Shown here piece after piece: positions 15,906 through 39,716 of a DNA stretch of 64,000 bases. The first letter of the stretch is position 1. Every line of letters begins with the position of its first letter. The stretch is from NCBI GenBank assembly GCA_027306505.1, contig DAHUZP010000001.1:120932-184931 (forward strand). Reading direction: 5' to 3'. The notes beneath the pieces are model-generated. The model ran no database searches. It was not told where the DNA came from and worked only from the letters and a program-made list of their open reading frames with translations. Position numbers and translations under genes: made by a program. The DNA is from Thermoplasmata archaeon (GTDB lineage Archaea; Thermoplasmatota; Thermoplasmata; Lutacidiplasmatales; UBA184).

Positions 15906-16109
15906 AGGTCCAGGGGAAGGGCGGCTACCCGACCGGGAGGGCCCGAGGCAAGCCTCTTAGCGCCCCGTGCGTGGGGAAGGGCGCTGGGGGAGCCATCTTG
16001 CGGCTGAGAGGACAGATGTCATCTGTCGACCCCTCGAACCTGATCCGGGCAATGCCGGCGAAGGGAAGACGATGGCCAGCATAGGGAAGGCTCCCGCACG
16101 CGGCGGGAC

Positions 16110-17327
16110 ATGAGCACGGAGAGCACCCTGGAAACGGCGCCAGCCACAACGGACGATGGACCTTCCCCTGAGGGCCCTCCGGGCGGGAAGGGACCTCCTC
16201 CTGCGCGAAGGCGCGTTCGGCCGAGATGGTCGGTCTGGCTCGCAGTGGCGATCATCCTCGGCGCGGCCATCGGAAGCTATGCCGCCTACCACCTCCTGAC
16301 CACCCCGCACCCTGCCCCAACGACCCTGACGATCTGGACCTACGACGGGCTCTTCGGAGGAGGGAGCGACCCGAACCAGACCCGGGCGGAGGTCTTCGGG
16401 GGCTTCACGAACATGACGGGCATCTCGATCCATCTGGTCTACATCGCGGGCGACCTTGCGCAGGCGCTGAGCGACGCGAAGCCGGGCGCACGACCCGACC
16501 TCGTCATGGGCCTGGATGAGCTCGAAGCGCCGCTCGCGGACCAGGCGGGACTCCTGGTACCTTACACCTCCCCGGAGCTCTCGCAGGTGAACGCTTCGGT
16601 GGTGAACGCGATCGCCCCGGACCGCTCGGTCACTCCCTACGAGTTCGGTTACCTCGGACTCGACTACGCCCTGACCCTCCCGACCAACGCCACGTCCACC
16701 TTCTCAGGAGGAGACTTCTTCCAAGCCATGGCGGTGAACCCCTCCCTCGCGAAGGACCTCTACTACCCAGACCCGGTACAGGGGGACATCACGGGCGAGG
16801 AGTTCCTCGCCTGGCAGGTCGAGTATTACACCCATGTGCTCCACCAGAACTGGACGACCTTCTGGAAGAGCGTAGCCCCCTACGTCCATCCCCAACCCGA
16901 CTGGACCTCCTGCTGGAACGCGTTCACGGCGAGCGTGGGCGCCTCCCCGACCTGTCTCAGCTATACCTCGGACCCGGCCGCTGAGGCCTACTTCGGGTCG
17001 CCCGGATGGATGAACACCTCCGTGGTGCACCAGGGGGGACACGCCTGGAGCTGGATGACCGTCTACGGCACCGGGATCGTACAAGGGACCCCCCATTTGT
17101 CCGCCGCAGAACGCTTCGTGGACTGGACGCTGGACCCCAAGGTCCAGGCGCTGGTCCCGACGAACGAGTGGATGTACCCCGCGAATGGGGCGATCGGTCT
17201 GCCATCGTGCTACAACTGGACCGACCCGCCCTCCGCGCTGACCCCGGTGAACCAGTTCACGACGCCCGCCCAGAGCTCCTCGGAGATGACCGGTTGGGTG
17301 CTGCAGCTCGCGACCATCCTGGCCTAG
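16110..17327 (+). CDS. ABC transporter periplasmic-type substrate-binding protein (thiamine/Fe3+ family-like)
   Basis: An N-terminal TM/signal anchor is followed by an SBP fold (TIWTYDG...), and the gene lies upstream of a cognate permease and ATPase. Confidence 0.7.
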   Translation: MSTESTLETAPATTDDGPSPEGPPGGKGPPPARRRVRPRWSVWLAVAIILGAAIGSYAAYHLLTTPHPAPTTLTIWTYDGLFGGGSDPNQTRAEVFGGFTNMTGISIHLVYIAGDLAQALSDAKPGARPDLVMGLDELEAPLADQAGLLVPYTSPELSQVNASVVNAIAPDRSVTPYEFGYLGLDYALTLPTNATSTFSGGDFFQAMAVNPSLAKDLYYPDPVQGDITGEEFLAWQVEYYTHVLHQNWTTFWKSVAPYVHPQPDWTSCWNAFTASVGASPTCLSYTSDPAAEAYFGSPGWMNTSVVHQGGHAWSWMTVYGTGIVQGTPHLSAAERFVDWTLDPKVQALVPTNEWMYPANGAIGLPSCYNWTDPPSALTPVNQFTTPAQSSSEMTGWVLQLATILA

Positions 17328-19196
17328 ATGCCGGAGCAGCCGGGGAGCTCCCCGCCGGGAGGGCTCGTGGAAGGCATGACGGGCGGCCCTCTTGGCGAAG
17401 CGGGGCCGGGAAGGAGCGGAGCTCGAGCGGGGCCCCCCACCGTCCCGCGGACTCCCCTCCCTAGGACCTCCCTTCGAGCGCTCGGCGATCTCGGAGGCCT
17501 GGGGCCGGCCCTCGTCTTTATCGTGCTGTTCTCTTTCCTTCCGCTGTCCGCGCTGGTCGTCGAGGCCTGGTCCTCGCAGGGCGGAGCGACGGGTCTCGTC
17601 TCCGTGCTCTTCGACCCGGGCATCGTCGGACAATTGGTCCGACAGGGGCTTGTGAACTCCCTCGTGCAGGGGCTTCTGAGCGCGGCCTTGGCCTTCGGCT
17701 GGGGGCTGCCGGTCGGAGTCCTGCTCGGCCGCCTTCGCTTCCGCGGTCGCGGGTTCCTCCTCGCTTTCCTACTGGTCCCCTTCCTCCTGCCCGCTCTCGT
17801 CGTCGTGCTGGGCGTTCAGGAGCTCTTCAATCCCGGGGGCCCTGGCACTTCCGCGGGGTTCCTCTCGGCAGTGTGGGCACCCGCCGGGAGCCTGGGCACG
17901 GGACTGCCCGCCATCCTGACGGTGAACGTCTTCTACAACACCTCGATGGTCGCGCTCTTCACCGTCGCGGGAACGACGCAGTCCTCCCCAAGCCTGGAGG
18001 ATGCCGTCGCGACGCTGGGAGGGTCCCCTTGGCGGGGCTTTCGCGATGTCTGGGGGCGTCCTGCCCTGCTGGGAGCTTCGGCGGGGGCCCTGCTCACCTT
18101 CCTCTTTTCGTTCCTCAGCTTCGCGCCCCCGCTCGTCCTCGGGGGGGAGAGGACCTACACCGTGGAAGACTGGATCTACGCGTTCTTCCATTTGCGGCCG
18201 GGGGTCCCGCTAGGCCTCTCGCTGGGACTCTCTCTGTGGACCATGCTCCTGCTGCTGCTGCCGAGCCTGCTCTACCTCCTGCTCGCCCGACGTGTGCAGC
18301 TCTTCTCTCCGTCCTCGGGAGCCTCCTCCTCAGGACGCAGGACCATCTTCTGGGGGTCCTTGCGACCCTTCCGCCCATCCTGGGACCTGCCGTTCGTCGC
18401 CTTCACGGCGGCCCTGGTGGGTTTCGTGGGCCTGCTCCTGGGGGCGGTGATCGTCGGCTCCTGCCTCACTTTCCCCATGGGAGGGTCGCCCTGGGGACAC
18501 CTGGGTCTCGAGGATTGGCAGTTCCTCTTCTCCGACCGGGCGACCCAGGCGTTGGGAGGGACCTCGACGGTCGAGGCGATCGGGAACACGCTCTTCTTCG
18601 CCAGCGCCTCCACCCTCCTACTGCTCCTGGTCGGGCTCACCGCCGGCTTCTCGCGTCTCAGGCACCCCCGGGCCGGGATGTGGACGGACCTGCTGTCGTT
18701 CGTTCCGTTGCTGTCCTCGCCGGTCATCCTGGCCCTCGCGCTCTGGAGCTTCTATGGCGACACGCTCTACACGCCGACCCTGCTGTGGGTCCTCATCCTC
18801 GGGGCGCAGGCCGGGCTCGCCCTCCCCTTCGTGCTCCAGACCGTGAGCACGGCGTTCCGGGCGAACTCGCCCGCCGGCCGAGAGGCCGCTCAGCTCCTCG
18901 GAGCGAGCCGGTGGAGGGCCTTCCTAGACGTGGACGTCCCGGCGACCCGGGGAGCGCTGCTCGCCTCCTCGCTCTTCTCCTTCGCGTTGTCCCTGGGCGA
19001 GTTCACCGCGACGAACTTCCTCTATACTCCCCCGTACACGACCCTCGTGGTCGAGATGTACTTCCTGACGGGGGGGCGCCTCCTCGGAGCGGTGGGGGCC
19101 GCGGCCGCCCAGGCGCTGGGAGGGCTGCTGGTCCTCGTGAGCCTAGCCTCGTTCCTCGTGATCCTGGAGGTGGGTCGACGTGCCGGAAACCGCTGA
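17328..19196 (+). CDS. ABC transporter permease with two fused transmembrane domains (ThiP/FbpB-like)
   Basis: There are about 12 predicted TM helices with two EAA-like loops. The gene is translationally coupled to the ATPase gene. Confidence 0.75.
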   Translation: MPEQPGSSPPGGLVEGMTGGPLGEAGPGRSGARAGPPTVPRTPLPRTSLRALGDLGGLGPALVFIVLFSFLPLSALVVEAWSSQGGATGLVSVLFDPGIVGQLVRQGLVNSLVQGLLSAALAFGWGLPVGVLLGRLRFRGRGFLLAFLLVPFLLPALVVVLGVQELFNPGGPGTSAGFLSAVWAPAGSLGTGLPAILTVNVFYNTSMVALFTVAGTTQSSPSLEDAVATLGGSPWRGFRDVWGRPALLGASAGALLTFLFSFLSFAPPLVLGGERTYTVEDWIYAFFHLRPGVPLGLSLGLSLWTMLLLLLPSLLYLLLARRVQLFSPSSGASSSGRRTIFWGSLRPFRPSWDLPFVAFTAALVGFVGLLLGAVIVGSCLTFPMGGSPWGHLGLEDWQFLFSDRATQALGGTSTVEAIGNTLFFASASTLLLLLVGLTAGFSRLRHPRAGMWTDLLSFVPLLSSPVILALALWSFYGDTLYTPTLLWVLILGAQAGLALPFVLQTVSTAFRANSPAGREAAQLLGASRWRAFLDVDVPATRGALLASSLFSFALSLGEFTATNFLYTPPYTTLVVEMYFLTGGRLLGAVGAAAAQALGGLLVLVSLASFLVILEVGRRAGNR

Positions 19197-20256
19197 GCTG
19201 GGGCGTCCCTCCCCTGTGCTGACGGTCCGCGGCCTGGAGCGGCGCTACCCGGGCTTCCGCTTGGGCCCGGTCGACCTCACCCTGGGGAAGGGCGAGACCC
19301 TCATGGTCCTGGGTCCCAACGGTTCGGGGAAGTCGACGCTGCTCCGGCTCCTAGCGGGACTGGAGCCCGCGGACCGCGGAGAGGTCCGGCTCGCGGGCAG
19401 GGACCTCTCCCAGGTCCCCCCCCACCGGCGCGGGATCGGGATGGTGTTCCAGGACCTTGCGCTCTTCCCGACGAAGAGCGTCTGGGACAATCTGACCTAC
19501 GGCCCTTTGGTCCAGGGATGGACCCCGCGGACGGTGGAGGCGCGAGGTGAGGAGCTGCTTCGACAGTTCCGCCTGGAGAAGCTCGCGGACCGCCGCCCTC
19601 CCGAGCTCTCCGGTGGCGAGCGGCAACGGGTCGCCCTCGCCCGAGCCCTCGCCCCGAGGCCCTCCTTGCTCCTCCTTGACGAACCGCTCTCTTCGGCGGA
19701 CCCCAGGAACGCGGGGGAGCTCCGTAGCGAGATCCAGACCTTCCTTCGGGAGGCGGACATTCCCGCGATCTACGTCACCCACGACCTCGACGAGGGATTC
19801 TTCCTGGGGCACCGCATCGCGCTCATCCAGGACGGTGCCTGGGTCCAGGAGGGCCCCTCGGACCAGGTCTTCGACCACCCCGCCAACGCCTTCGCGGCGT
19901 GGTTCCTGGGCTACAACGTCCTCCCCGACCCGGGAGCCGAAGGCGGACACGGTGTCATCGCGGTCCTGCCGAACCGGATCTCCCTCGCGCCGCCCACATC
20001 CCCCGGCGTCCTCCCCGGAGTGGTCGAGTCCTCTGGAAGGAGCGGCGCGCTCTTGCGTCTCTACGTTCGGCCCTCCACCCGCGCCGTTGGGGAGGGGGCG
20101 CCCCGCGTCGAAGTGGTCGTTCCGCGGGAGGCCCAGGCCGAGCTCCCTGGTGTGGGGGAGAAGGTTGGCCTGCTCCTGGAGGGAGCGATCCATCTCCCAG
20201 GGGACCTCCCCCCCGGCGGCTTCATGAAGGGCCCCTCCTCGGGGAAGGGCAGGTAG
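19180..20256 (+). CDS. ABC transporter ATP-binding protein with a C-terminal TOBE-like domain
   Basis: It carries Walker A GPNGSGKST, the signature LSGGERQRVALARAL, Walker B LLLLDEP and an H-loop. Confidence 0.85.
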   Translation: MPETAELGRPSPVLTVRGLERRYPGFRLGPVDLTLGKGETLMVLGPNGSGKSTLLRLLAGLEPADRGEVRLAGRDLSQVPPHRRGIGMVFQDLALFPTKSVWDNLTYGPLVQGWTPRTVEARGEELLRQFRLEKLADRRPPELSGGERQRVALARALAPRPSLLLLDEPLSSADPRNAGELRSEIQTFLREADIPAIYVTHDLDEGFFLGHRIALIQDGAWVQEGPSDQVFDHPANAFAAWFLGYNVLPDPGAEGGHGVIAVLPNRISLAPPTSPGVLPGVVESSGRSGALLRLYVRPSTRAVGEGAPRVEVVVPREAQAELPGVGEKVGLLLEGAIHLPGDLPPGGFMKGPSSGKGR

Positions 20257-20261
20257 GACCG

Positions 20262-20648
20262 ATGACCGCCGCAGATACTCCCCCAGTGCTCTTGGTCGGT
20301 GGACCGGAAGCGGAGCGAGAGCTCCTCAAGGGCTTCCTTGTCCGCAACGGTGTAGGGGTCCTCGCTTCCGTCGCGCAACCGCCGGACGCGCTCACGCATC
20401 TCACCTCTCGGCCGGATTGCACCTTGGTGCTCCTGCGGCCCGCGGAGGCGGTGCAGACCGGGGGCTGGGTCAATGAGCGAAGGACCCAAGGATTCCAGGG
20501 CCGGGTCGGGGTGATCGTGCGACCCGAAGAGATCCGCACCTACATCTCGAAGGGCCGGTGGAACGACTTCGCGCTAAAGGTCCCTGTGTCCGAGCCGGAC
20601 CTACTGGGGGCCGCCCGTTCGGCCTCGCGCTTGTCCGAGCGCATCTGA
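20262..20648 (+). CDS. Stand-alone CheY-like receiver fold lacking the acidic phospho-acceptor residues (pseudo-receiver)
   Basis: A beta-1 strand VLLVGG replaces the usual hhhDD. The beta-3 end reads TLVLLRP where the Asp57 equivalent is expected. The conserved K-P is retained (FALKVP), and the protein is 128 aa. Confidence 0.5.
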   Translation: MTAADTPPVLLVGGPEAERELLKGFLVRNGVGVLASVAQPPDALTHLTSRPDCTLVLLRPAEAVQTGGWVNERRTQGFQGRVGVIVRPEEIRTYISKGRWNDFALKVPVSEPDLLGAARSASRLSERI

Positions 20649-20687
20649 GGGCACCCTTATCTCGGTACTGCCTCCTGCGGAGGGGCG

Positions 20688-21371
20688 ATGCCTTCCCCGG
20701 TCGTGGTCGAGGGACGCGACGTCTGGAAGGTCTACGCTTCCGAGGCGGGGGACGTCCCGGCCCTCAAGGGCCTCGAGGTCGCGATCCGCAAGGGCGAGAT
20801 GGTGGCGGTCATGGGGCCTTCCGGCTGCGGGAAGACCACGTTCCTCAACTGCTTCTCCGGTCTCGACGACATCACCAAGGGCACGATCCGAATCGAGGGA
20901 AAGGACCTGCGCAACCTCTCGGACAACCAGCGCAGCGAGTACCGCGCGCTCCGCATGGGGTTCGTGTTCCAGGCCTACAATCTGCTGCCCGTGCTGACCG
21001 CCCAGGAGAACGTCGAGCTGCCGCTGCTCGTCGCGGGGGTTCCGCCCAAGGAGGCGCGACAGCGCGCGGTCCTATGGTTGAAGGAGCTCGGCCTCAAGGG
21101 CCGGGAAGAACACCGGCCGAGCGCGCTCTCCGGTGGGGAACAGCAACGCGTCACGCTGGCCCGCGCCCTCGCGAACCGGCCCGCCATCGTGTGGGCCGAC
21201 GAACCGACGGGGAACCTCGACGAGGAGAACAGCCGGGCGGTGATGGAGCTCCTGCGGGAGCTCAACCGCGAGCACCACCAGACCTTCGTCGTAGTTACCC
21301 ATGACCCGTCCGTCGCGGGGGCCTGCGACCGGACCATGAGGATGCGAGATGGCCGCATCGTCACGGACTGA
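20688..21371 (+). CDS. ABC transporter ATP-binding protein, MacB/LolD type
   Basis: It has Walker [10 protein letters not shown], a Q-loop, the signature [15 protein letters not shown], Walker [13 protein letters not shown], and the length is 227 aa. Confidence 0.85.
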
Positions 21372-24300
21372 ACCCACGAGGTCCGGGAGGGCCCGCTCCG
21401 GGCGCTCCTCCAGCGGAACGCTCCCCGGTAAGGCCTCCGATGCCCAACGCCGGGGCCGGCTCGCGAACCAGGTCCTGCTCATCGGGACCGCCCTCGGGCT
21501 CGTGATCATCGGGACCAGCCTTTGGCTCGGCACGACCGCGGGCAGTGAGCAGGCGGTGACGGCGCTCTCCACCCTGGGGGCGGGGGACCCCGTCGTGGGC
21601 CTCCTCGTGCTCATCGTGGTCATCGTCGCCCTCTTTTCCCTAGTCCTCGGGCTCAAGGACCGCGTCATCGCGAAGATCGGACTGCGGAACGTTTCGAGGG
21701 CGCGCACCCGGACGGTGGTCCTGCTCTTCGGCCTCCTCATCGGAAGCACGATCATCTCCTCGTCCCTGGTGATCGGGGACACCGTCAACACCCTCTCGGT
21801 CCACTTCACCTACATCGCGGACGGCACCGTGGATGAAGCGGTCTGGGCACCGGCGCAGTCACTCGGCGGCCTCGGGACCTCCTCGCTCACCTACGCACCG
21901 TTCCCTTCCAGCGTGTTCACCTCGATGAATTCGAGCTTGCCGGGGAGTCCGGAGGTCTCGGGCCTCGCCCCCATGCTGCTGGGGACCGCCTCCGCCTTCG
22001 ACCTCACGCGCCAGGTCGCCCAGCCGGGTCTCACCCTCATCGGGGCGGACGCCTGGACCAGCGCGACCCTGGGCGGCTTCACCTCGGTCAATGGCTCGGC
22101 GGCCAACGGCCCGTTCTCGGGCCAGGTGCTCCTCAACCCGACCGCGGCCTCGGAGCTCTCGGCGTCGGTGGGTGACCGGATCAGCCTCAGCGGGGCGGCC
22201 GCCTCCCCCACGACCTACACCGTAGCAGGGATCGTCCGTGCGGACACACGTGGAGGTTTCCAGGACGGGGGCTTCGGCGACGTCTTCGTCAACCTCGCCG
22301 GCGCTCAAGCCCTCTCGGGCATCCCGGGCCGTGTGAACTTCATCGCGGTGACCAACGTAGGAGGGATCAGCGGAGGACCCTCCCACACCCACACCGTCTG
22401 GCCCCAGCTCAACGCGTCGCTCGCCTCGGCGGGAGGTCAGCGGTACGGCTTGACCGTCCACTCCATGCTGCAATCGGACCTGCTCTCCGCCGAGGCCAAT
22501 TCCGCCTCCCTCACTCAGCTCTTCCTCGTCCTCGGGCTCTTCTCCATCGGAGCCGGCTGCGTCCTCATCGTCGGGATCTTCGCCATGCTCGCAGAGGAGC
22601 GACGCGGAGAGATGGGGGTCGCCCGGGCGGTGGGGATGCGCCGAGGGCAGCTCATCCGGGCCTACTACTTCGAGGGCCTCGCCTACTCCGCCGGCTCCGC
22701 CCTCCTCGGGACGCTCCTGGGCGTGGTCGTGGGCTGGGGGATGATCCAGGCCTTCGCGAACGTCTTCGGTGGGGGCGGGGGCAGCGAAGCCCAGGCGATC
22801 GTGGAATCGTTCTCCTTCACCACCCGGAGCCTCGTCCTGGCCTACGCGGCGGGGTTCCTGCTCACCCTGGGGACGGTCACGGTCACCTCAGCCTACGTGA
22901 GCCGAATGAACATCGTTCGGGCGATCCGTAGCCAGCCGGAGCTCGTTGAGCGGGCCCGCTCCCAGCGCCTGCTGCTCGCCTCCGGGGTCCTCCTTGCCCT
23001 GCTGGGCGCGGCCCTCTACCACGTGGGTGCGCCCTCCGGCACGGACATGGACATCGGCTACCTCGGGGTGAGCCTCCTGCTGCTCGCGGTCGGCCTGATC
23101 GCGGCCTTCCGGCTGCCGTTGCGCTGGACCTTCTCCCTATCGGCGGTGGGGCTGCTCATCTTCTGGTCGGACCTCTCGCTGCGGAACGACCTCTTCCCGG
23201 GCCCGCACACCGGGACCATCTTCGTGTTCTTCCAGGAGGGGGTCTTCCTCATCCTCGCCGCGGTCATCCTCTATGTCTTCAACTCCGACCTCATCGTTCG
23301 GGCCCTGACCGGCCTCTCCCGGAGCGGGTCGAGGAACCTCCCGGTGGTGCGCCTCGCGTTCTCCTATCCCGCCCACCGCAAGTTCCGCTCCGCGATGACC
23401 ATCAGCATCTTCGCGATGGTCCTGTTCACGATCACCGCCATCGCGGCGATCGGCAACGGGATCTCCTCCGGGGTGTCGACCAGCATCGCTACGCAGTCCG
23501 GAGGTTACGAGTTCTACGGGGTCTCCCCGAACCCGATCACCGACATGTCCGGAACCGTCCAGCAGAACGCGACCCTGAGAGCGGACGTCTCGACGTTGGT
23601 CCCGTTGTACTCGGGAGGGGTGATGGTCAACGCACGTCCAAGCGCCCCGTGCAGCGCCACCAACATGTGCTTCGGCTACGGCGCTGCAGCGGCGCCCACC
23701 GGCCCTTCGGTCCCCACCTGGCAGAACTTCTATGGCACCAACCACTTCAACTTCACCGCGACCGCGCCGGGGTACTCCCCCTCGCAGGTCTGGCAGGCGC
23801 TCGAGTCGGACCCGAACGTCGCGGTGGTCGATGGGAGCTTCCAATCCAACATCATCTCGGAGTTCCAGGGCAACGGACATCCCGGGGTACGCGCCGGGGA
23901 CGGCATGAACCTCACGAGCCTCGCTTCGGGCTCGACCGTCACGGTCCGGGTCCTGGGCATCCTCAGCGAGCAGTCCGTCCCGGTCGTGCTCGTCAACAAC
24001 CAGACGATGGTCGAGACCCTGGGATACTCCACGCAGAACATCTTCCTCTTCACCGCTGCCCCCGGGGTTTCGGCACGGACGGTCATCCAGAACTTCCAGA
24101 CCCACTTCTTCGCCGAGGGGCTCCAGGTCTACGATTTCGCAAGCGAGCTGTCCAACGCTTTGCAGTTCACGGACGCGTTCATCAATCTCCTCGAGGTCTT
24201 CGTGGCCCTCGGCCTGATCGTCGGCATCACCTCGCTCGGGATCCTCGCCCTTAGGGCGGTGGTGGAGCGGCGCACCCAGATCGGGGTCGTCCGGGCGGTG

Positions 24301-24570
24301 GGGTTCCGGCGCTCTCAGGTGCTGGCGGTCTTCCTGACGGAGTACTCCTTCCTCGCGCTCATGGGCATCGGCATCGGAGCGGTGATGGGCCTCGTGCTCG
24401 CCTACAACCTGAACCAGGCGATCGGGGGCTTCTTCTCCTTCGCGATCCCGTGGGCGAACCTGGCCTTCGTCCTCGCCACGAGCTACGCCCTGACCCTCGT
24501 CGCGACCGGGATGCCGTCGTTCCGCGCCTCGCGCATCCCTCCTGCCGAGGCGATCCGCTACAGCGAGTGA
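21349..24570 (+). CDS. ABC transporter permease with tandem FtsX-like domains and large extracytoplasmic domains
   Basis: Two 4-TM FtsX/MacB modules are each preceded by a long soluble domain, and the ORF overlaps the upstream ATPase gene. The true start may be downstream of 21349. Confidence 0.75.
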
Positions 24571-24666: not shown

Positions 24667-25615
24667 CTAGAGGTCCCGAGCGCTGGAGAAGGCGACCGCG
24701 ATGCAGACGAGCGTCGCCAACCCGTAGAGAGAGTAGATGGTCCCGATGATGAGCGTGCCAGCGACGAAGGAGGTCCCGACCACCGCGACCGGGGAAGGGG
24801 CGATCCATAGCGCCCCGAGGAGCGTGGAGACGCGTCCGAAGGCGCCTCGAGGGATGCGGGATGGCAGGAAGGTCCGCCAGGGCACGAGGTTGGTCTCCTG
24901 GGAGGCCCCTATCCCGAGGGCGACCAGCAGGGCTAGCCACCAGAGATGGAGGAGGCCGAGCGCGAAGATGCCGATCCCTTGGCCGACGAGCCCCAGCGGA
25001 ATGAGCCGACCCGCCCGGATCCTGCGCGCCCAGTGACCCACCGCAAGGCCGCCGCCGATCGAGCCCAGGGCGAAGCACGAATTGCACAGGCCGTAGGGCG
25101 CGGTTCCGCCGCCGAGGTCGCGCTGGATGTACGGGGCGTAGAGTCCCTGAAGACCCATCGCGAATAAGCTCGCGAGGGAGCCGAGCAAGGCGAGCCGGAG
25201 CAGCAGCCGGTCCTCCCGAAGGCACCGCGCTCCCTCTTGGAGGTCCCGCAGGAGGGACCGGGACCCTCGGGGCGACCCCTCGCTCCCGGCACCCCGTGGG
25301 GGCGTCCCCGCTGCTCTGGGGAGGAGCGCGATGAGGAGGAGCGGAAGGAGGAAGGAGATCGCATCGTACTCGGAGGGGACCTCGGACCCCAGCAACGCCA
25401 CGGGGAGCCCTCCAACGCCCGAGCTCAGGATGGAGTTCGCGGACGCGGAGGAGCGATCATGTCGTCGTCAGCACGAACCAGATGGCCGCGAGGTTGAACA
25501 CGACGTCGCCGGAGAAGGACGACATACGGTCGATCCACAGGACGAGGAACCGTGGGTTCCGACCGACCGTGGCATAGGAACCGACCCGAGCGGGTGTGGA
25601 GGAGGGTGCGGACAT
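24667..25615 (-). pseudogene. MFS transporter disrupted by a frameshift, with central TM helices apparently missing
   Basis: An MFS-like N-terminus (MSAP...RNPRFLVLWIDRMSSFSGDVVFNLAAIWFVLTTT) is encoded at 25615-25457 and ends in TGA. The MFS-like continuation (SSGVGGLPVALLGS...) lies in the +1 frame and runs to 24667. The combined length of about 316 aa is too short for a 12-TM transporter. Confidence 0.4.
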
Positions 25616-25980: not shown

Positions 25981-28911
25981 ATGCCAAAACGGAAGTCCCC
26001 TCCCCGAACGCTCCCCGCTGCACCGGACGGTCAGGTGGAGGGCTCGTGGCCGGGGTCCTCCGACGGTAGGGGGGCCTCCTCCCGCTCCGCAACCTCGGCC
26101 CAGAGCGCCTCTGCCCCCGCGGAGGAGACCTCCTCGAGGCGCCGCGCCCAGATGACCGTCCCCACCGTGGTCGACATGCGGAAGGCGCGGGAGGAGGCGC
26201 TCTTCCAGCTTCGGCTCGGCCGCCAGTCCCTCGCCTTCGGGTTCCTGGTCGGTCTGCTCCTGGTCGTCGATGCCGCCATCGCGCTCTTCGTGGGCACTTC
26301 CTCGCTCTCCTCGGTAGGCACGGTCGGTGCCTTCCTCCAGTCCGTCATCAACAACCAGCTCGCGCTCGCCCTACCCCTCGCGGCGGGGCTCTTCCTCTCC
26401 ATCGCGGTCTTCCTGGAGAAGTACGACACCTACGGGTTCTGGCCGTTCGAGGACCACTTCGCGATCACGATCGCCTCCCTCGCCCTCTCCGTCGCCCTCG
26501 CGGTGATCTACGCCCTCCACCTCGTCAACCGCGGTCCGGACATCCTCAAGACCCTCTCCTGGACCGTCTACGTGCTGGTCTTGATCGCCATCTCCCTCGG
26601 GATGGTCTCCCTGGGCACGACCTGGAGAGGGTGGCCCTGGCGGAAGGTCGCGAGCCTGGTGTTCGCGGTGCTGCCTCCGGTCCTCGCGGTGCCGCTCCAG
26701 TACTCCCTTGCTTCGCTCAACAGCCTCGGGGCCCCCGGCGGTTATGGGGCGTTGAACCTCTCGCTGTCCATCAGCTTCGGCTTCGCAGCCTTCCTCTACA
26801 TCGCGAGCGGTGCTCAGCTGCACCTCATGGCGAGCGCGACGCGCGCGCAGGAGCGCGAGGTGGTCGCCGGTAGCCACGAGAAGCTCTTCGCCCTCGCCCA
26901 GGAGCTCAGCACCCGGAACGAGGCCGCCATCTTCCGGGAGGAGGCGCTCTCCCGCCGCGAGGCCGACGTGGAGGCCCAGGAAGGGACCCTCGTGGAGCGG
27001 GCCCGTTTCCTCGAGGACCGCCGCCAGGAGCTCGAGACCCTGGACCGGCACCTCCGCACGAAGGGGGACGAGGTCGGTGGGCGCGAGCAAGCCCTGCTAC
27101 CCCGTGCCGCCGAGGTCACCGCGGCCGAGGCCTCCCTGAAGGAGCGGAACGCCCAGGTCACGGCCCGGGAGCATGAGATGCAAGCCGGCTTCCAACGGCT
27201 GGGGGACCGGGAGAGGAACCTGCTCGAGCGCGAGCAAGCGACCCGTCAGAAGGAGCTCGAGCTCCAGAACCGGGTGGCCGAGGTCGCCCGCTCGGAGGCC
27301 CAGGCGCGCGCGGTGGAGCAGAGCGCCCAGCAGCGTCTCGCTGAAGCTCAGCAACGCTTTGCCGCGGCGACGGGCCGAGAGGCCGAGATCCGTGCCCGGG
27401 AGTCCAGCATGCAGCTCCCGCCCGATGCGAGGGCTCGTGTCCAGACGAAGGAGGCCGAGATCGCACGGCGCGAGGCCACGATCGAGTCCCAGCGGGCGGA
27501 GATCCAGGACCGGATCGGAGCGGCCTCCGTCAAGGAGCAGGCAGCGGAGCGTCGCCGCGTCGAGCTCCAGCAGGTCGCCTCGACCATCCTGGAGCGGGAG
27601 AAGAACCTCGCCTCCCGAGAGGCCGCCCTCACGGCGAAGGAGAAGCAGTACGAGATCGAGCTCGACCTCCTCAAGGGTGCGACGAAGCGCCACGAGGACG
27701 AGATCCGAAAGTACTTCGACGCGACCAAGAAGAGCACGCTGGTCGAGAGCCAGTCGAGCCTCATGATGAGCCAGCTCAAGGAAAAGGAGACGGGGGTCTC
27801 CGTCCGGGAGCAGAAGGTCCAGGAGCGGGAGCGCGAGATCCAGGGACGGAGGGAGGAGCTCGAGCGCCAGACCCAGGAGGTCACCGCTCAGCGGCGGTCC
27901 GCGGAGGCCCAGTTGGCGGACCTTCGCATGCGCAGCACCCGGCTGGAAGAGGCGGCGGCCCGCCTCGCCCCGAGCCGCAGCGAGGCCGACGCCACCCTCA
28001 CCCGGGCCCTGCAGGACCGGGAGAAGGCGATCGAGCTACGCGAACGCCAGCTGGCCGATCGGGAGCAGAAGGTCCGTTCGATGCAGTACGAGCGGGACCG
28101 CCAGGCGACCGCGGGAGCGGTCGCACAGGAAGAGGCGGGATCGCTCACGGGGGTCGGTCCGACCCCCTCGCTCCGGCGCCCCGGGAAGGTCTCGACCGGG
28201 ACCCCCCGCTTGGACGACCTGCTCCTGGGGGGCTTCCCCGAGAAGGGACATGTCGGGTTCGTGGGACCGGCCTTCGTGGGGAAGGAGGTCGCGATCTACG
28301 CCTTCCTCGCCGAAGGGCTTCGCAAGGGGGAGGGCGCGCTGGTCATCGCCGCGAGCCGGTCTCCCTCCGAGACCGCCCGCGAGATGGGCGTCGTGATCCC
28401 TTCGCTCATGGAGTACGAGGGCGCTGGGCGTCTCATCTGGATCGATGCCTCCAACCCGGCGGGCGTACCGGCAGGCGATGCCCGTAGCAAGGCCGGGACC
28501 ACCGTCAAGGGTCCGGGGGACCTCGTCGGCATCCTCCAGGCGGTGAGCCGCCACTCTGCCGAGCTTGAGAAGACGAGGGCCGGCTTCCGGGTGGCGTTCC
28601 TCTCCCTCTCCTCGTGCATCACCCAGACGGACGAGCGGGGTGGCGCAGCCTTCGTCCAGAACATCCTGGGCATCCTCCGCCCCAAGGGGAGCCTAGGGGC
28701 CTACAGCATCGATCGGGGCATGCACAGCGACCAGCAGGCCCAGGCGATCATCTCGCAGATGGACGGGGCCGTCGAGTTCCGCACGGAGCGGGGAAAGACC
28801 CAGCTCCAGGTCGTGGGGCTGGGAGAGGTCCAGGCACGCCAGTGGGTGGACTACCGGTTCACGCAGCGCGCGCTCTCGCTCGGGAGCTTCACGCTCGAGA
28901 GGATCCGTTAG
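25981..28911 (+). CDS. Membrane protein with about 8 N-terminal TM helices, a ~400-aa coiled coil and a C-terminal KaiC/RecA-like domain with a degenerate P-loop
   Basis: Hydrophobic helices lie at the N-terminus. A long heptad-like Glu/Arg/Ala/Gln segment follows (REEALSRREADVEAQEG...). The C-terminus reads GTPRLDDLLLGGFPEKGHVGFVGPAFVGKEVAIYAF, with GxxxxGKE instead of GKS/T. A better start may be the ATG near 26152. Confidence 0.6.
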   Translation: MPKRKSPPRTLPAAPDGQVEGSWPGSSDGRGASSRSATSAQSASAPAEETSSRRRAQMTVPTVVDMRKAREEALFQLRLGRQSLAFGFLVGLLLVVDAAIALFVGTSSLSSVGTVGAFLQSVINNQLALALPLAAGLFLSIAVFLEKYDTYGFWPFEDHFAITIASLALSVALAVIYALHLVNRGPDILKTLSWTVYVLVLIAISLGMVSLGTTWRGWPWRKVASLVFAVLPPVLAVPLQYSLASLNSLGAPGGYGALNLSLSISFGFAAFLYIASGAQLHLMASATRAQEREVVAGSHEKLFALAQELSTRNEAAIFREEALSRREADVEAQEGTLVERARFLEDRRQELETLDRHLRTKGDEVGGREQALLPRAAEVTAAEASLKERNAQVTAREHEMQAGFQRLGDRERNLLEREQATRQKELELQNRVAEVARSEAQARAVEQSAQQRLAEAQQRFAAATGREAEIRARESSMQLPPDARARVQTKEAEIARREATIESQRAEIQDRIGAASVKEQAAERRRVELQQVASTILEREKNLASREAALTAKEKQYEIELDLLKGATKRHEDEIRKYFDATKKSTLVESQSSLMMSQLKEKETGVSVREQKVQEREREIQGRREELERQTQEVTAQRRSAEAQLADLRMRSTRLEEAAARLAPSRSEADATLTRALQDREKAIELRERQLADREQKVRSMQYERDRQATAGAVAQEEAGSLTGVGPTPSLRRPGKVSTGTPRLDDLLLGGFPEKGHVGFVGPAFVGKEVAIYAFLAEGLRKGEGALVIAASRSPSETAREMGVVIPSLMEYEGAGRLIWIDASNPAGVPAGDARSKAGTTVKGPGDLVGILQAVSRHSAELEKTRAGFRVAFLSLSSCITQTDERGGAAFVQNILGILRPKGSLGAYSIDRGMHSDQQAQAIISQMDGAVEFRTERGKTQLQVVGLGEVQARQWVDYRFTQRALSLGSFTLERIR

Positions 28912-28995: not shown

Positions 28996-29712
28996 ATGGG
29001 GGAGGAGCTACAGGACGTGGCCACGACCCCTTCGGGAGCCTCCGTGACCTCCGCGCCCGCCTTGGCGGGGCGGCTCCACGACCTGTGGAGCTTCGTCCGC
29101 CCGTGGGTCCCCTTCCTCGCGGTCTTCCTCCTCCTCTCCCTGGGCTGGGGCGCGATGGCCACGCGGTTCGCGGAAGGCGCGGGTCAGCCGCTCTCGGCCG
29201 CGACCGGACCCACCCAGGGCGAGTACATTGACGCGTTCTGGCACCTGGGCACGGGGTTCCTTCTCGCGCTTCCGACCAGGGACCGACGGCTCCTCCTCAT
29301 CACCCCATGCATGTCGCTGGGGCTGGACGCGGACCACGTCTTCGGACTGTTCCTGCCCAGCGCGGTCCCCCGACCGGACCATTCGCTGCTCTTCGCTCTC
29401 CTCGCGGCCGCGGTCGCCTACGCGTGGAAGGGGCCCCTCGCCCGGGGCGCGACGATCGCCGCGATCTTCACCCACTTCGCGGTCGACGGCGGCACCTTCC
29501 CGTTCCTGGACCCCCTCACCTTCGCCCGATGGCCGCTCAGCATCCCGGCGTCCGCGGCCCTCCTCCTCGGCTGCGGCACGCTCCTCCTCCTTCTCCAAGG
29601 CACGCCCCGCGGCTGGAGGGACACCCGGGCATGGGTCGAGCTGGCGGTCATCGTCGCCGCCCTCACCGGGTTCCTGGTCTGGATAGGCCCGGTCTCGTGG
29701 CTGCGGACGTAG
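28996..29712 (+). CDS. Membrane-bound metal-dependent hydrolase-like protein (DUF457/YdjM-like)
   Basis: It is a polytopic membrane protein with His/Asp-rich loops (LGLDADHVFG, FTHFAVDGG). Confidence 0.45.
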   Translation: MGEELQDVATTPSGASVTSAPALAGRLHDLWSFVRPWVPFLAVFLLLSLGWGAMATRFAEGAGQPLSAATGPTQGEYIDAFWHLGTGFLLALPTRDRRLLLITPCMSLGLDADHVFGLFLPSAVPRPDHSLLFALLAAAVAYAWKGPLARGATIAAIFTHFAVDGGTFPFLDPLTFARWPLSIPASAALLLGCGTLLLLLQGTPRGWRDTRAWVELAVIVAALTGFLVWIGPVSWLRT

Positions 29713-34913: not shown

Positions 34914-37900
34914 CTAGGGTCGGTTGGGCAGGGGAGGGGAAGCTCCTTCGTCCGCCCCTGAGACGACCCTTGGGGGAACGGGAGCCCGCTCCTTGGGCGA
35001 TGAGGACCGGGCCAACCGGGGGGCGGAGAGCTTTTCGCCGAACTTCGCGCCGAGCGGCGTCAGGGAGATCCGCTCCCCTCCGCTCAGCCGGTCCCGGTCC
35101 CTCATGACCAGTCCCGCGTCGGTGAGAGAGGCGAGCACGATGTAGAGACGACCGTCGGGGATCCTCGTGTCGCGCTGAAGCTCCCCGGCGGGAAGAGGGC
35201 CCACCCCGAGCGCGCCTAGGACCAGGTGGTAGTCGGTAATCTCCTTCGACCCCAGCTTGCGGAGCAGCGCGGAGAAGACCTCGTCCCCCTCCGTAGCAGC
35301 TGGGACGGTGGGGGCGGCGGCCTCCGCCGCAGCGTCCATCGGTGACCAGGCACTGGTCGCCGACATGGGTGTCGCGGTGGCCCCCTCGGCAAAGGCCTCC
35401 GAAGCCTCGGGAGCGGCCTCGGGGGGCATCGGCGTGCTCGCGGGCAGCACCTGGGCCTCGGGGAACAGCGGGGATGGCGGCGGGGCGCCTACGAAGGCGG
35501 CCGACCCTGCAGGGTCCGGTCCCTCCATCGGAGGCCCTGGGACGACCTCCTGCCCTGGGAAGAGCTCCTCCGACGGCGCCTGCTGCCGTGCACGTCGAGA
35601 GCGCGCCGCGAAGAGGACGAGGGCCGCGACCACCAGCGCAACGAGGACGAGCAGGAGGGCCAGCCCGACGAAGAAGGGCAGGCCCAGCAGCGTCGAGCCG
35701 GGGGAAGGTGCCCCTCCGCTTCCGCCGCCCCCCCCACCACCACCGCCTGTCCCTCCGCCGGGGCCACCACCGACAAGGGCCGGAGCGACCACGATCGCCA
35801 GGGAACTCGTGCCGGCGGTCCGTCCGGCGGCATCGGTGAACCAGGCGCGGTAGGTGTAGGTCCCGGGGTGCAGGAAGGTCGGAGTGGTCCAGCGAAGGGC
35901 GGTCTGGGTGGTGTTGGTACCGTTCTCGGACCAGACCACGCCGTAGGGCGAGGTGCCTCCCCAGGCGGAGGCGTTGAGCACCACCGAAAGGCCGACACGG
36001 GACGAGGTCGTGTTCGCCGTGGCGAAGGCACGGAGCTGGACGATCCACGGGAACCCAACCACCCAAAGCTCGTGGTGGGCCGATACGTGCTCCCCCAGCG
36101 TGTCCGTCTCTTCGAGCGTGAAGGTGTAGTTCGCCTCTCCCGAGGGCGTGAAGGACAGCGAGGAGAGGGAGGGGTTCGTCGTGAGGTTCGTGCTCGAGTT
36201 GAGGAGCCAGAAGTAGCTCACCGGCCCGTATCCGCCCTTCACCGACGCGGAGATCGAGACCGGGACCGAGGGCAGGGTCCCGTTCGCCGAGAAGGTGAAG
36301 TCCGGGCTCAACGGGGCGACCACCTGCAGGGTCACCTGGGCGACCGCCGAGCTCCCCCGACTGTCGTTGGCCCAGGCCGTCGCGTTGTACCAGCCCGGTG
36401 AGGTGTACCTGTGGACGGGAGTGGTGCCCGCCCCCGCCTGCCCGTCGCCGAACCTCCAGGAGATCAGGACGGGGGCCGTGCCGCCGGTGGTGACGGAGGA
36501 GAACTGGAAGATGAGCAAATCGGTGCCCCGCGTGGGGCTCGCCGAGACCTTCAGGGTCGGGAGCGAGTTCACGACCAGCGAGACCGGCCCGGCGAAGGCC
36601 CGGGAGCCGAAGGTGTCGTTCAGCTGGAGCCGGATGGAGTAGGTCCCGGGGGCGGACGGACGGCAGGGCAGGCTGCTCTGGTTCGCGCTCGCGCAGCCGG
36701 GGGGGAGCCCCTGCCACCAGAAGGTGTAGATGCCCGAGCCCCCGGAGGCGTTCGCCTGCAAGAGCGTCGACGATCCCACGTCCACCGTGGAAGGGCTCGC
36801 TCCGAGCCCCGAGAGCACGGGGGGAAGCCCCACCAGCACGGTCTCGTTGACGAGGGCGGAGGCGCCGAGCGTGTCGTTCGCATAGAGGCGGACGATGTAG
36901 CTTCCGATGGTCGTGAAGGTGTGGGAGACGTTGCCTCCTGAGACGCTAGGACTGCCGTCCCCGAACCGCCAGGTCGAACTGACCGTGCCCGTCCCGGGGT
37001 GCGCGAAGCTCGAGAAGTACACCGTGAGCGGTGCCGGTCCGCCCAGCGGGTGGGCGGTGACGTTCGCGGTCGGCCAAGGGTCGACCAGGATGAAGAGGGT
37101 CGCGCTCGCCGTCACCGCCCCGTCGGTGACCGTGACGGTAGGCGTGTAGGAGCCGGCCGCGTTGGGAGCGCAGGTGAAGATGGGCGCTCCCGTGTTCGGG
37201 CACCCCGGGGGCAGACCCGACCAGGTGAACGAGGTGAAGATCCCCGAGCCGCCCGAAGCGACCGCGCTGAACGACGCAATCTGGCTCGCATCGATGATGA
37301 GCGGAGAGACGCTCGCCGTCACGGTGAGGGAGGCCGGGAGGCCGTAGCTCCACATGTCCCCCAGGGGCACCGTGTTCCAGCCCCCGAAGATGAGGACGTA
37401 GCCGTCCGCCTCATCATAGGCGACGTTCGGCCCGTCGCGAGGCGGTGGTGCGACCGAGCCGGTGACGTTGGTCCACGTTCCGGCCTTGTAGGCCCAGGTG
37501 TCGTTGCCCCACTGCGAGCATGCCGACCCCGTGACGAAGGCCAGGCATCCGCCGAAGAGGTAGACGAACCCGTCGCCGCGGTCGTACACCATGCCGGGGA
37601 AGGAGGCCGCGGGGGGGTCCCCCGAGGGCTGCGTGCGGTTGGTCCAGGTCCCCGCGTGGTAGGACCAGATGTTGTCCGAGAGCCAGCACTGGAGCGGGTT
37701 GCTCGTGGTCTGGACGCAACCGTCCACCATGAGCACGTAACCGTCGGAGGCATCGTAGGCCAGGCCCTCCTGGGACCTCGCGGGGGGGCTCGAGGGGGAG
37801 GAGGTCTGCGGCGTCCACTGCCCGCCGACGAACGACCAGGTGTCGCCCAGGTTCCCGTTGGAGTTGCCTCCGCCGAAGAGCAGGGCGTAGCCGTCGGAGG

Positions 37901-39716
37901 CGTCCCAGGCCATCTCCATACAGCAACGCGCGGAGGGAGAAACCGTCGGAGCGAGGGCGGTCCAGACGCCGGCCCGGTAGCTCCAGGTCGCGCCGAGGGG
38001 TCCGTTGGACTGCGTCCCTCCACCGAACATGACCACGTACCCATCGTAGAAGTCGTAGGTCATCGCGGCGCAGCACAGGCCGCCCGGCGGCGAGGAGGAG
38101 CTCACCAGGTGCCAGCTCAAGTTCTGGTAGGTCCAAGTGGCGGCGAGGTGGGTGTTCCCCGTCGTTCCGCCACCGTAGAGGAGCACGTAGCCGTCCGCAT
38201 AGTCGTAGGTGATCGCGGCGTTGACCTCCTCGGTGGGGGTCCAGGAGGTGGGCAGCAGTCGCTGGTACACCCCTGGCACCACCTGGGTGCCGAAGAACTG
38301 CCACGTGTCGCCGTACAGGGTCGAGCCGAGGGTGCCCCCGAAGAGGACCACCAGCCCGTCGGTCGGGTCGAAGGTCATCGCGGCCTGCGACCGGAGGAGG
38401 GGAGGGGTTCCCACGAAGGCGGTGATGTTGGTCCAGTACCCCCGCTTGAACGCCCACGTGTCCGAGAGCCCGGACGCGGTCGCGGGCTGGCCTCCGAAGA
38501 GCAGGACCTCACCCTCCACCGCGTCGTAGGTCATCGAGAGCCCTTGCCTGGGCGATGGGGCGTGGGGGGAGTGCCAGGTCAGATCGGTCCAGGTGTCGTT
38601 GCTGAAGGTCCACGTCTGGTTGTCCGAGATACAGGGGCCCTGGCGCGGGCCCATGCAACCTCCAAAGAGCAGGGCGTACCCGTCGGCCGAGTCGAAGGAC
38701 ATGTCGAGGCCCATGTGCGGCGGAGGGGAGACGCCGCCCCGAAGGCTTCCCGTGATGTTCGTCCAGACCCCGCCCTGGTACGTCCAGGTGTCGTTGTAGT
38801 AGCTGGTCGAGCCACCGCCGAAGAGCAGCACTTTCCCGATACCGGCATCGAAGGTCATCGCCGCATCGAAGCGAGGGCCCGGGTTGCTGGTGGGGCTGAG
38901 CTGGGTCCAGATCCCTCCGGCGTAGCGCCAGGTCTCGGAGCTGAAGGTGCCTGAGTTCGCGCCACCGAAGAGCAGAACGTACCCATCCGCCGCGTCGTAG
39001 GCCATCGAACTGCAGCAGAAGATTGGGGGATGGGTCCCCGTGACCTGGGTCCAGGTGTTCGAACGATAGTACCAGGTCTGCTGGACGAGGCCCGCGCCCG
39101 TGCTCCCGCCCCAGAGCAGCACGTAGCCGTCATGGTTGTCATAGACCATGTCGGCGCCTGAGGTCGCGGGGACCGCCCCCGAGGGCGAAGTGGACTGCCA
39201 GATCGGAGCGGTGCCCGAAGGCCGATAGTCGGCGAGCTCGGTCGACCGGGAGGAGCAGTGGAGGCTCCCCGTTCCCGACCCGCAGGTCCACGGCACCCCT
39301 CCCGCGGGCCCGCCACCGGATTCGAGCGAAGCCGTCGCCGAGCGCAGGGCCTGCTCCGGACCGAGAGGGGGGGGTCCGTTCTCGGGGGGCTCGGGAGCCG
39401 CCTGGGGTAACGACACCGATGGGGAGAGCTTCGGCCCAGAGGCCATGTGCGGGGCCCCTACGAGCAACAGGAGGCAGAGGACGCCCACGACGACCGCGAG
39501 AGCGGAGAGCGGGCTTGAACGGGGGCCATGAGGGAGCGGTTTCGGCGCGGCTCCACCTCCTTCCTGACTCCCCGTGCCCGGGGGGGACCGGCTGACCGCT
39601 CGAGGGCCGGACCACGGGCGGGGGGACTCACCCGCCTCACTTCGGAGGAGCGCTGCTCCGTTCTCGCGGGGCTTGTTCCTCAGGTAGTGACGCGTGGACG
39701 GACCGACGATCTCCAT
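34914..39716 (-). CDS. Giant type-I membrane protein: a signal anchor, about 14 Kelch-type beta-propeller blades, four PKD domains, one TM helix, a Pro/Ala-rich cytoplasmic linker and a C-terminal TrmB-like winged helix
   Basis: The blade motif DGYVLLFGG...W.Y/F...W is repeated. PKD motifs of the form WxFGDGxxxxGxxxxHxYxxxGxY are present. The TM helix is LLGLPFFVGLALLLVLVALVVAALVLF. The C-terminus reads ITDYHLVLGALGVGPLPAGELQRDTRIPDGRLYIVLASLTDAGLV. Confidence 0.7.
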   Translation of the reverse strand: MEIVGPSTRHYLRNKPRENGAALLRSEAGESPRPWSGPRAVSRSPPGTGSQEGGGAAPKPLPHGPRSSPLSALAVVVGVLCLLLLVGAPHMASGPKLSPSVSLPQAAPEPPENGPPPLGPEQALRSATASLESGGGPAGGVPWTCGSGTGSLHCSSRSTELADYRPSGTAPIWQSTSPSGAVPATSGADMVYDNHDGYVLLWGGSTGAGLVQQTWYYRSNTWTQVTGTHPPIFCCSSMAYDAADGYVLLFGGANSGTFSSETWRYAGGIWTQLSPTSNPGPRFDAAMTFDAGIGKVLLFGGGSTSYYNDTWTYQGGVWTNITGSLRGGVSPPPHMGLDMSFDSADGYALLFGGCMGPRQGPCISDNQTWTFSNDTWTDLTWHSPHAPSPRQGLSMTYDAVEGEVLLFGGQPATASGLSDTWAFKRGYWTNITAFVGTPPLLRSQAAMTFDPTDGLVVLFGGTLGSTLYGDTWQFFGTQVVPGVYQRLLPTSWTPTEEVNAAITYDYADGYVLLYGGGTTGNTHLAATWTYQNLSWHLVSSSSPPGGLCCAAMTYDFYDGYVVMFGGGTQSNGPLGATWSYRAGVWTALAPTVSPSARCCMEMAWDASDGYALLFGGGNSNGNLGDTWSFVGGQWTPQTSSPSSPPARSQEGLAYDASDGYVLMVDGCVQTTSNPLQCWLSDNIWSYHAGTWTNRTQPSGDPPAASFPGMVYDRGDGFVYLFGGCLAFVTGSACSQWGNDTWAYKAGTWTNVTGSVAPPPRDGPNVAYDEADGYVLIFGGWNTVPLGDMWSYGLPASLTVTASVSPLIIDASQIASFSAVASGGSGIFTSFTWSGLPPGCPNTGAPIFTCAPNAAGSYTPTVTVTDGAVTASATLFILVDPWPTANVTAHPLGGPAPLTVYFSSFAHPGTGTVSSTWRFGDGSPSVSGGNVSHTFTTIGSYIVRLYANDTLGASALVNETVLVGLPPVLSGLGASPSTVDVGSSTLLQANASGGSGIYTFWWQGLPPGCASANQSSLPCRPSAPGTYSIRLQLNDTFGSRAFAGPVSLVVNSLPTLKVSASPTRGTDLLIFQFSSVTTGGTAPVLISWRFGDGQAGAGTTPVHRYTSPGWYNATAWANDSRGSSAVAQVTLQVVAPLSPDFTFSANGTLPSVPVSISASVKGGYGPVSYFWLLNSSTNLTTNPSLSSLSFTPSGEANYTFTLEETDTLGEHVSAHHELWVVGFPWIVQLRAFATANTTSSRVGLSVVLNASAWGGTSPYGVVWSENGTNTTQTALRWTTPTFLHPGTYTYRAWFTDAAGRTAGTSSLAIVVAPALVGGGPGGGTGGGGGGGGGSGGAPSPGSTLLGLPFFVGLALLLVLVALVVAALVLFAARSRRARQQAPSEELFPGQEVVPGPPMEGPDPAGSAAFVGAPPPSPLFPEAQVLPASTPMPPEAAPEASEAFAEGATATPMSATSAWSPMDAAAEAAAPTVPAATEGDEVFSALLRKLGSKEITDYHLVLGALGVGPLPAGELQRDTRIPDGRLYIVLASLTDAGLVMRDRDRLSGGERISLTPLGAKFGEKLSAPRLARSSSPKERAPVPPRVVSGADEGASPPLPNRP

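Follow-up and report, generated by a model that had tools for sequence, protein, structure and literature searches.

The window analysed here is a stretch of 64,000 nucleotides from a Thermoplasmata archaeon (GenBank assembly GCA_027306505.1, contig DAHUZP010000001.1), with a GC content of about 69%. Within it, an open reading frame (ORF) at 25981..28911 runs in a single frame from ATG to stop and encodes a protein of 976 residues; archaeal ribosomal and translation genes (S17e, eIF6, L31e) adjoin it. An earlier note on this DNA had described the product as a membrane block followed by a long helical region and a KaiC-like domain with a deviant Walker A motif. This three-part architecture is borne out and is conserved between species, and the KaiC-like domain proves to have lost its canonical catalytic residues across the whole family.

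The ORF is a real gene and a single unit whose layout is kept across species. Its codon-position GC contents (GC1 0.71, GC2 0.48, GC3 0.90) are typical of coding sequence in this genome and are coding-like along the whole ORF, and an M-[A/P]-K start common to orthologues supports the first ATG. Several database relatives are short (212–446 residues), and a first protein search returned only fragments of at most 446 residues, as might be expected if the ORF were an annotation or assembly artefact, either a fusion of two genes, the case that the earlier note had singled out, or a pseudogene. The short relatives, however, end at contig ends, scaffold N-runs, or frameshifts. Three split relatives lie on long contigs, two broken by N-runs and one by frameshifts, and in all three the upstream piece holds the basic tail, the transmembrane (TM) block, and the start of the rod. 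At 66 complete loci, each from a different Thermoplasmata species represented by a metagenome-assembled genome (MAG), an uninterrupted ORF of 840–1000 residues has the same layout, and dozens of proteins of 840–980 residues are likewise unbroken. Because the splits among relatives are sequence gaps or frameshifts and the complete loci hold an intact ORF, a fusion is ruled out, and an artefact of any kind has a negligible probability.

The C-terminal domain is predicted to have a KaiC/RecA fold, and a non-RecA fold is excluded. The domain scores 31.4–33.9 bits against Pfam KaiC (PF06745), for which the gathering cut-off is 26.6, and the same profile is matched by all 47 family members scanned, with a best E value of 8e-21. 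A separate AlphaFold2 (AF2) model of residues 720–976 has a predicted local distance difference test score (pLDDT) of 87.4 and a predicted template modelling score (pTM) of 0.84. In a Foldseek search of the PDB, this model matches PH0284, KaiC CI/CII, and FlaH/ArlH best, with query-normalised template modelling scores of 0.63–0.75, and a profile of the family finds KaiC with an E value of 2e-26 and PH0284 with 1.9e-22. The C-terminal domains also match MEDS (32 of 47), DUF7504 (42 of 47), and PAXNEB (Elp4; 37 of 47). Pfam RecA is matched by a single one of the 47, weakly, and the best structural neighbours are of the KaiC type, not RadA. The profile search and structure prediction that the earlier note had proposed thus return a KaiC family match and a RecA fold, as it had suggested.

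The motifs of the domain were aligned with those of KaiC, PH0284, and the canonical KaiC-like protein encoded at 59981 in the same window (GPPGSGKT, YVTLEE, and RIVIDSLT). Catalytically active members of the KaiC/RecA group carry a Walker A motif of the form GxxxxGK[S/T], but in this family the motif is Gxx[F/Y]xGKE: Glu has taken the place of Ser/Thr, and an aromatic residue that of the fourth-position Gly. G762, F765, V766, G767, K768, and E769 are invariant in an alignment of 67 full-length orthologues. This set was retrieved with a P-loop pattern and is therefore biased, whereas the set retrieved with the TM domain is independent of the P-loop. In the latter, all proteins read Gxx[F/Y]xGKE except one GDAFVGTE and one frameshifted sequence without a readable P-loop; P0109 has Thr at the position of K768. 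The Glu that had been noticed in a single sequence is thus a family-wide feature, present in all 67 orthologues and in the readable P-loops of the TM-retrieved set.

The remaining catalytic positions are also replaced. The pair of catalytic Glu residues after strand 2 (equivalent to KaiC E77/E78) has become [S/T/A]-[R/K], with Arg or Lys at position 793 in 66 of the 67 orthologues, and the Asp of the canonical hhhhD Walker B strand, which the earlier note had marked for checking, gives way to Leu, Met, or Phe in every one of the 67. In the finger region, the canonical KIRG aligns with a gap to GEVQ[T/A], two residues upstream of a conserved Arg953; the KxRG region itself lies beyond the stretch covered by the profile alignments to PDB chains. 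At the C-terminal motif, the exceptions to the consensus are Arg and Pro at positions 1–2 in single members. Loss of the Walker B Asp and of both catalytic Glu residues strengthens the non-catalytic reading first drawn from the P-loop, and the sequences indicate that the domain is a pseudo-ATPase, probably unable to hydrolyse ATP. Because the replacements are conserved rather than decayed, the site should have a new, selected function. The two positions changed from Thr to Glu and from Glu to Arg/Lys both flank the Mg2+ ion in KaiC structures, which suggests, by analogy, that the new pair forms a salt bridge filling the Mg2+ site. Glu769 and Arg793 would then probably occupy the former Mg/γ-phosphate site.

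Between the membrane block and this domain lies a region predicted to be helical throughout. A full-length AF2 model, built on 53 sequences, has a mean pLDDT of 75, with about 90 in the TM block. In it, residues 288–710 form four helical segments (288–369, 376–474, 485–658, and 671–710) with pLDDT of 70–80, and their composition is rich in Glu, Ala, Arg, Leu, and Gln. Beyond the linker, the same model shows an α/β domain at residues 740–970. No DNA tandem repeats of note were found in the rod region. By a crude heptad score, only 52% of the rod lies above the 95th percentile of shuffles matched for composition, so that "long helical, coiled-coil-like rod" is the safer wording. The lengths of the two main segments, here called arms, are about 186 and 176 residues. 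In arm 1 (here 288–472), no insertion or deletion (indel) of 3 or more residues occurs among orthologues and the maximum gap fraction is 0.01; in arm 2 (here 485–660), the maximum gap fraction is 0.12 and the length is never altered. The distance from TM6 to the C-terminal domain is 399–482 residues in all orthologues, and indels of 3 or more residues fall solely at mid-rod (positions 473–482; −7 to +21) or in the distal segment 663–719, where deletions of up to 54 residues are found in some orthologues. The hinge indel sizes of 16, 17, 19, and 21 are not multiples of seven. In 35 orthologues, the mid-rod prolines lie at 0.508 ± 0.02 of the rod length, where the rod is counted as starting after TM6 and stopping at the first proline more than 350 residues further on.

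Mutual information with average product correction was scanned along antidiagonals for 102 non-redundant sequences, using 21-letter and 8-class alphabets. With band smoothing, both alphabets give a peak at apex 483–484 (z 3.0–3.3 among about 290 candidates), which coincides with the hinge; in the unsmoothed scan, this apex was ranked first by the 21-letter alphabet only. With the apex placed there, two pairs of positions mirror each other: the kink of arm 1 (370–375, with a Pro/Gly column at 374) and a Pro/Gly column at 593 in arm 2, and likewise G298 and the break at about 669. Equal and invariant arms, a variable hinge, and a weak covariation peak together favour a hairpin. We judge the chances to be slightly better than even that the two arms form an SMC-like antiparallel fold-back hairpin of about 27 nm, although this geometry is not proven. 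Such a hairpin would place the KaiC-like domain near the membrane and not at the end of a stalk, and the same observations make doubtful the earlier suggestion that the domain is held away from the membrane.

Hydropathy and the full-length AF2 model agree on six TM helices, at roughly residues 85–106, 125–146, 160–181, 193–213, 222–246, and 256–280, and not on the eight or so that had been counted before. The tail that precedes them is rich in Ala, Pro, Ser, Lys, and Arg; it is basic and variable between orthologues, with a TVP motif at its end that in many orthologues extends to RxVTVPxPEDLExAK, and its net charge in the 65 orthologues that have it has a median of +5 and a maximum of +18. Four motifs are conserved in the membrane block: ALLQLRIGR (in which Q, L, G, and R are invariant), KWExYxxWPWExHF, TWxGWxxRK, and SGSxLHLISSGTRxHERE. 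All are on the predicted cytoplasmic side, given the positive-inside distribution, and the outer loops are short and variable, which argues against an extracellular sensor. A word-index search found no known family for the TM domain, phmmer found it in no other architecture among 1.84 billion representative proteins, and profile scans of 16 TM domains gave scattered single matches with no consistent relative in Pfam or the PDB. The features of the protein are collected in Table 1.

Table 1. Features of the gene at 25981..28911 and of its predicted product
Feature	Residues	Coordinates	Strand	Basis or remark
Complete ORF	1–976	25981..28911	+	976 residues plus stop codon
Disordered N-terminal tail	1–62	25981..26166	+	pLDDT below 50
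Amphipathic helix before TM1	63–84	26167..26232	+	conserved ALLQLRIGR
Orphan six-TM domain, predicted N-in/C-in	85–280	26233..26820	+	hydropathy, AF2, conservation
Helical arm 1, kink at 370–375	about 288–474	26842..27402	+	AF2; invariant length
Hinge, putative hairpin apex (SSMQLPPDAR)	about 475–484	27403..27432	+	AF2; indels; covariation
Helical arm 2	about 485–658	27433..27954	+	AF2; invariant length
Variable distal helix (671–710) and disordered P/G/S-rich linker (711–739)	671–710 and 711–739	27955..28197	+	AF2 (linker pLDDT below 50); indels
Predicted KaiC/RecA-fold domain, probable pseudo-ATPase	740–976	28198..28908	+	AF2, Foldseek, profiles
Deviant P-loop GPAFVGKE	762–769	28264..28287	+	Gly, Lys, Glu conserved
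Ser792-Arg793 at the KaiC catalytic Glu-Glu position	792–793	28354..28359	+	alignment
Walker B strand RVAFLSLS, Leu874 for Walker B Asp		28588..28611	+	alignment
C-terminal motif GSFTLERIR		28882..28908	+	consensus G[SA]FxLERI[RK], nearly invariant

The protein belongs to an uncharacterised family that is specific to a clade of terrestrial Thermoplasmata; we found no description of this architecture or of any family member in the literature. A scan of one genome per species identified relatives in 172 genomes, a set that was retrieved with the P-loop pattern itself and is thus biased for P-loop residues. All 172 are Thermoplasmata-type MAGs from soil, peat, or sediment. The phmmer search with the TM domain gave 54 matches only, all of them N-terminal in proteins of the same architecture, of which the complete ones have 838–970 residues. 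Identity to the 976-residue protein is 96% for P0112 and, over the full length, 72% for P0055. Relatives appear in databases as "RAD55 family ATPase," "KaiC/GvpD/RAD55 family RecA-like ATPase," or hypothetical protein; the RAD55 label is generic. A few more distant relatives are soluble, with a short coiled coil and a GPPFVGKE domain. One of these, P0044 (L087 1869-3209), has 446 residues, comprising a basic tail, the short coiled coil, and the pseudo-KaiC domain, so that the domain also occurs without a membrane anchor. P0044 is encoded in a methanogen-type genome that carries MtmB, which points to the Methanomassiliicoccales type.

Comparison with known systems shows a familiar domain in an unfamiliar setting. 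The archaeal KaiC-like proteins PH0284, PH0186, and SSO2452 (PF06745, COG0467) have the same fold as the C-terminal domain and share with it the N-terminal TGxxxLDxLLGGGxP motif, the Gly and Lys of the P-loop, and the WIDA and DG motifs. These single-domain proteins, however, are soluble, have about 230–250 residues, and carry the canonical GxxGxGK[ST], LEE, and hhhhD elements, whereas in the protein described here all three are replaced and the domain follows a membrane and rod module of 740 residues. Cyanobacterial KaiC has a homologous RecA-like domain (E 2e-26), but it is a soluble hexamer with a double domain, autokinase and ATPase activity, and KaiA and KaiB as partners; this protein has a single KaiC-like domain, and no KaiB-like neighbour was found. 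MEDS, DUF7504, DUF7090, and PAXNEB (Elp4) cross-match the C-terminal domains, mostly with weak, sub-threshold scores, and none of them is described with a TM-plus-rod architecture. Elp4 is itself a RecA-fold domain that is not known to have ATPase activity.

ArlH/FlaH (PDB 4yds) is a further structural match (Foldseek E 2.3e-12), and it offers a functional parallel, as it is a KaiC-like adaptor at a membrane machine and not a motor (PMC5019145). ArlH is a stand-alone protein of about 230 residues that is encoded in the arl operon (arlI/arlJ) and binds ATP, whereas the 976-residue protein is membrane-anchored and lacks the Walker A Thr. No arl or type IV pilus genes were seen near the family gene in the neighbourhoods examined; genes for an ABC/FtsX transporter, for ribosomal proteins, or for a methyltransferase and a DUF998 protein lie there instead.

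If the hairpin holds, the rod would be like the arms of SMC, Rad50, and MukB in being an intramolecular antiparallel coiled coil of conserved length, with the N- and C-terminal modules meeting at the base and an apex that varies. A TM domain and a pseudo-KaiC domain, however, stand in place of the ABC ATPase head, and the arm would be about 27 nm long compared with about 50 nm. No SMC_N or ABC match was found within the protein, and no sequence homology to SMC, Rad50, or MukB was detected. In bacterial EzrA, the N-terminal region of bacterial RNase Y, and crenarchaeal ArlX/FlaX, a membrane anchor at the N terminus likewise leads into a long helical region in the cytoplasm, but these proteins have just one TM helix and lack a RecA-fold domain, and the similarity is one of composition only. 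Matches to Pfam CRWN_N and RNase_Y_N and to NCBIfam FlbB were likewise set aside as reflecting coiled-coil composition and not homology.

The surroundings of the gene vary between lineages. In the window and in the relatives at 72% and 64% identity, an ABC ATPase and a MacB/FtsX permease precede the gene. Immediately upstream in the window, at 19180-24570 (+), are two ABC ATPase genes (358 and 227 residues) and a 1073-residue permease with an FtsX domain; the Pfam list for the 72%-identity relative adds a weak MacB_PCD match. The FtsX permease is absent from the other loci. At 40 loci, a SAM-dependent methyltransferase of about 320 residues (Methyltransf_11/25-like) lies about 50 nucleotides upstream on the same strand, for example at L004 7136-8092 and L002 5283-6257, with a divergent DUF998 membrane protein beyond; this methyltransferase is not in the window. 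Clustering of neighbours over about 80 loci brings out genes for the methyltransferase, DUF998, HAD, and 2-hydroxyacid dehydrogenase as lineage synteny; the window has none of the four, and no conserved functional neighbour was found. Models of anti-phage defence systems in PADLOC gave no match, and identity as a defence system was dropped. Housekeeping, lineage-variable surroundings together with the lack of a PADLOC match fit a core cellular component and not a mobile or defence gene.

Overall, we put at about even the chances that the protein is a non-enzymatic, membrane-anchored, length-calibrated scaffold or adaptor with a pseudo-KaiC docking domain. In this reading, the arms would pair in antiparallel fashion, as in an SMC or Rad50 arm, so that a rod of about 27 nm would project into the cytoplasm and the KaiC-like domain would be tethered back at the membrane beside the conserved cytoplasmic face of the anchor. 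There, the domain could serve as a docking or oligomerisation module, possibly ligand-gated, and the nearly invariant C-terminal LERIR tail could be a partner-binding motif. The fixed arm length would fit a spacer or "ruler" role at the membrane. A bolder version, which we consider unlikely, is an archaeal "membrane SMC-like ruler," not recognised until now, in which a fixed antiparallel coiled-coil rod of about 27 nm stands on a base of six TM helices and a salt-bridge-locked pseudo-KaiC domain, and KaiC-type ring or dimer contacts build a lineage-specific sub-membrane lattice or spacer, a new cytoskeleton-like element of Thermoplasmata. Several observations weigh against the scaffold with its folded-back rod. 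The heptad signal is confined to about half of the rod, the enrichment of covariation among top pairs is weak (p 0.04–0.3), a Pro/Gly mirror-symmetry test ranked apex 483.5 only seventh, and the near-perfect conservation of the P-loop Gly and Lys could mean nucleotide binding or deviant catalysis.

The long helical region and flexible linker, the conserved Gly and Lys of the P-loop, and a hinge that could be a plain flexible joint would all suit a parallel coiled-coil stalk of about 55–60 nm that keeps a KaiC-like head, nucleotide-sensing but not catalytic, at a great distance from the membrane. Such a stalk does not account well for arms that are equal and invariant, for indels that within the rod are confined to the midpoint and do not come in multiples of seven, or for the antiparallel covariation peak at the hinge, and it leaves the conserved cytoplasmic face of the TM domain without an obvious partner; we regard it as a minority possibility. 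If the P-loop residues instead mark a deviant but active ATPase or kinase, Glu769 could bind Mg2+ directly and catalytic residues could be supplied in trans within an oligomer, and the invariance of G762, G767, and K768 and a conserved Arg953 near the KxRG finger region would find a use. This is improbable, as the Walker B Asp, both catalytic Glu residues, and the Walker A Thr are lost together, a bulky aromatic residue occupies the fourth-position Gly, and the GDAFVGTE member lacks even the Lys.

The protein could also be a receptor whose TM domain picks up a signal from the membrane or envelope and whose helices relay it to a KaiC-like output, making it a "KaiC hub" transducer. KaiC-like proteins were reportedly proposed as archaeal signalling hubs by Makarova and colleagues in 2017, and the match of the C-terminal domains to MEDS would agree with such a role. 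Short, unconserved outer loops, however, offer no evident sensor surface, known signalling helices are far shorter than the rod of about 400 residues, the residues for KaiC-type autophosphorylation are absent, and no kinase, KaiB-like, or response-regulator neighbour was found at the loci examined, all of which make a receptor quite unlikely. By analogy with the coiled-coil partners of FtsEX, the protein might instead assist or regulate the MacB/FtsX-type ABC transporter encoded next to it, whose ATPase and permease genes immediately precede the family gene, in the same orientation, both in the window and in the two relatives mentioned above. We consider this highly improbable, since elsewhere the permease is missing and a methyltransferase takes its place at 40 loci, so that local data already suggest that the family occurs without the transporter. 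The partners of FtsEX, moreover, are extracytoplasmic, whereas the rod described here is predicted to be cytoplasmic.

Few protein families in archaea are as expanded and as poorly understood as the KaiC-like proteins. In this family, found in at least 172 species-level terrestrial Thermoplasmata genomes, the KaiC fold appears to have been re-used as a conserved pseudo-ATPase and combined with a length-calibrated rod and a membrane anchor. Should the hairpin and ruler interpretation be correct, the protein would be a candidate for a structural element at the membrane in a group of archaea for which hardly any cytoskeletal or envelope-organising proteins are known, and a clean natural example of a re-purposed P-loop site, in which a change from Thr to Glu is paired with one from Glu to Arg. 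If it is wrong, the protein would be one more uncharacterised, lineage-specific membrane protein.

The earlier note had also raised a possible link to the second KaiC-like gene of the window. The two genes are 31 kb apart, and in none of 88 related loci was a canonical KaiC gene found within 10 kb of the family gene; no linkage was found. The second gene, at 59981-63928 (+), encodes 1315 residues, with the canonical KaiC-like domain at the N terminus (PF06745, E 4e-36) followed by about 1000 residues of low complexity, rich in Pro, Ala, and Ser. Directly downstream of the gene described here, at 28996-29712 (+), is a membrane ORF of 238 residues without a Pfam match; homologues are also directly downstream in L084/L085 (56% identity) and in L055 and L060 (40–44%) and are absent at other loci. 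Between the FtsX permease gene and the 25981 gene, the ORF at 24667-25401 (−) encodes the C-terminal half of a major facilitator superfamily transporter (PF07690 profile positions 160–339). No N-terminal half was found upstream of it in any frame, and it looks like a truncated remnant.

Other parts of the window carry features of separate interest. A thiamine pyrophosphate riboswitch (Rfam RF00059, 63 bits) at 15977-16083 (+) directly precedes genes for a solute-binding protein, a permease, and an ABC ATPase (16110-20256), which probably form a thiamine-regulated importer. A protein of 1600 residues with Kelch/PKD repeats, probably a surface protein, is encoded at 34914-39716 (−), and after its gene an ORF of 456 residues at 39825-41195 (−) has a weak, sub-threshold protein-kinase match. 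Finally, the gene at 56315-58009 (−) encodes 564 residues with an N-terminal Cys-x2-Cys...Cys-x2-Cys pattern, an Ala/Glu-rich helical middle, and no Pfam match, and it is another uncharacterised coiled-coil-like protein of the window.

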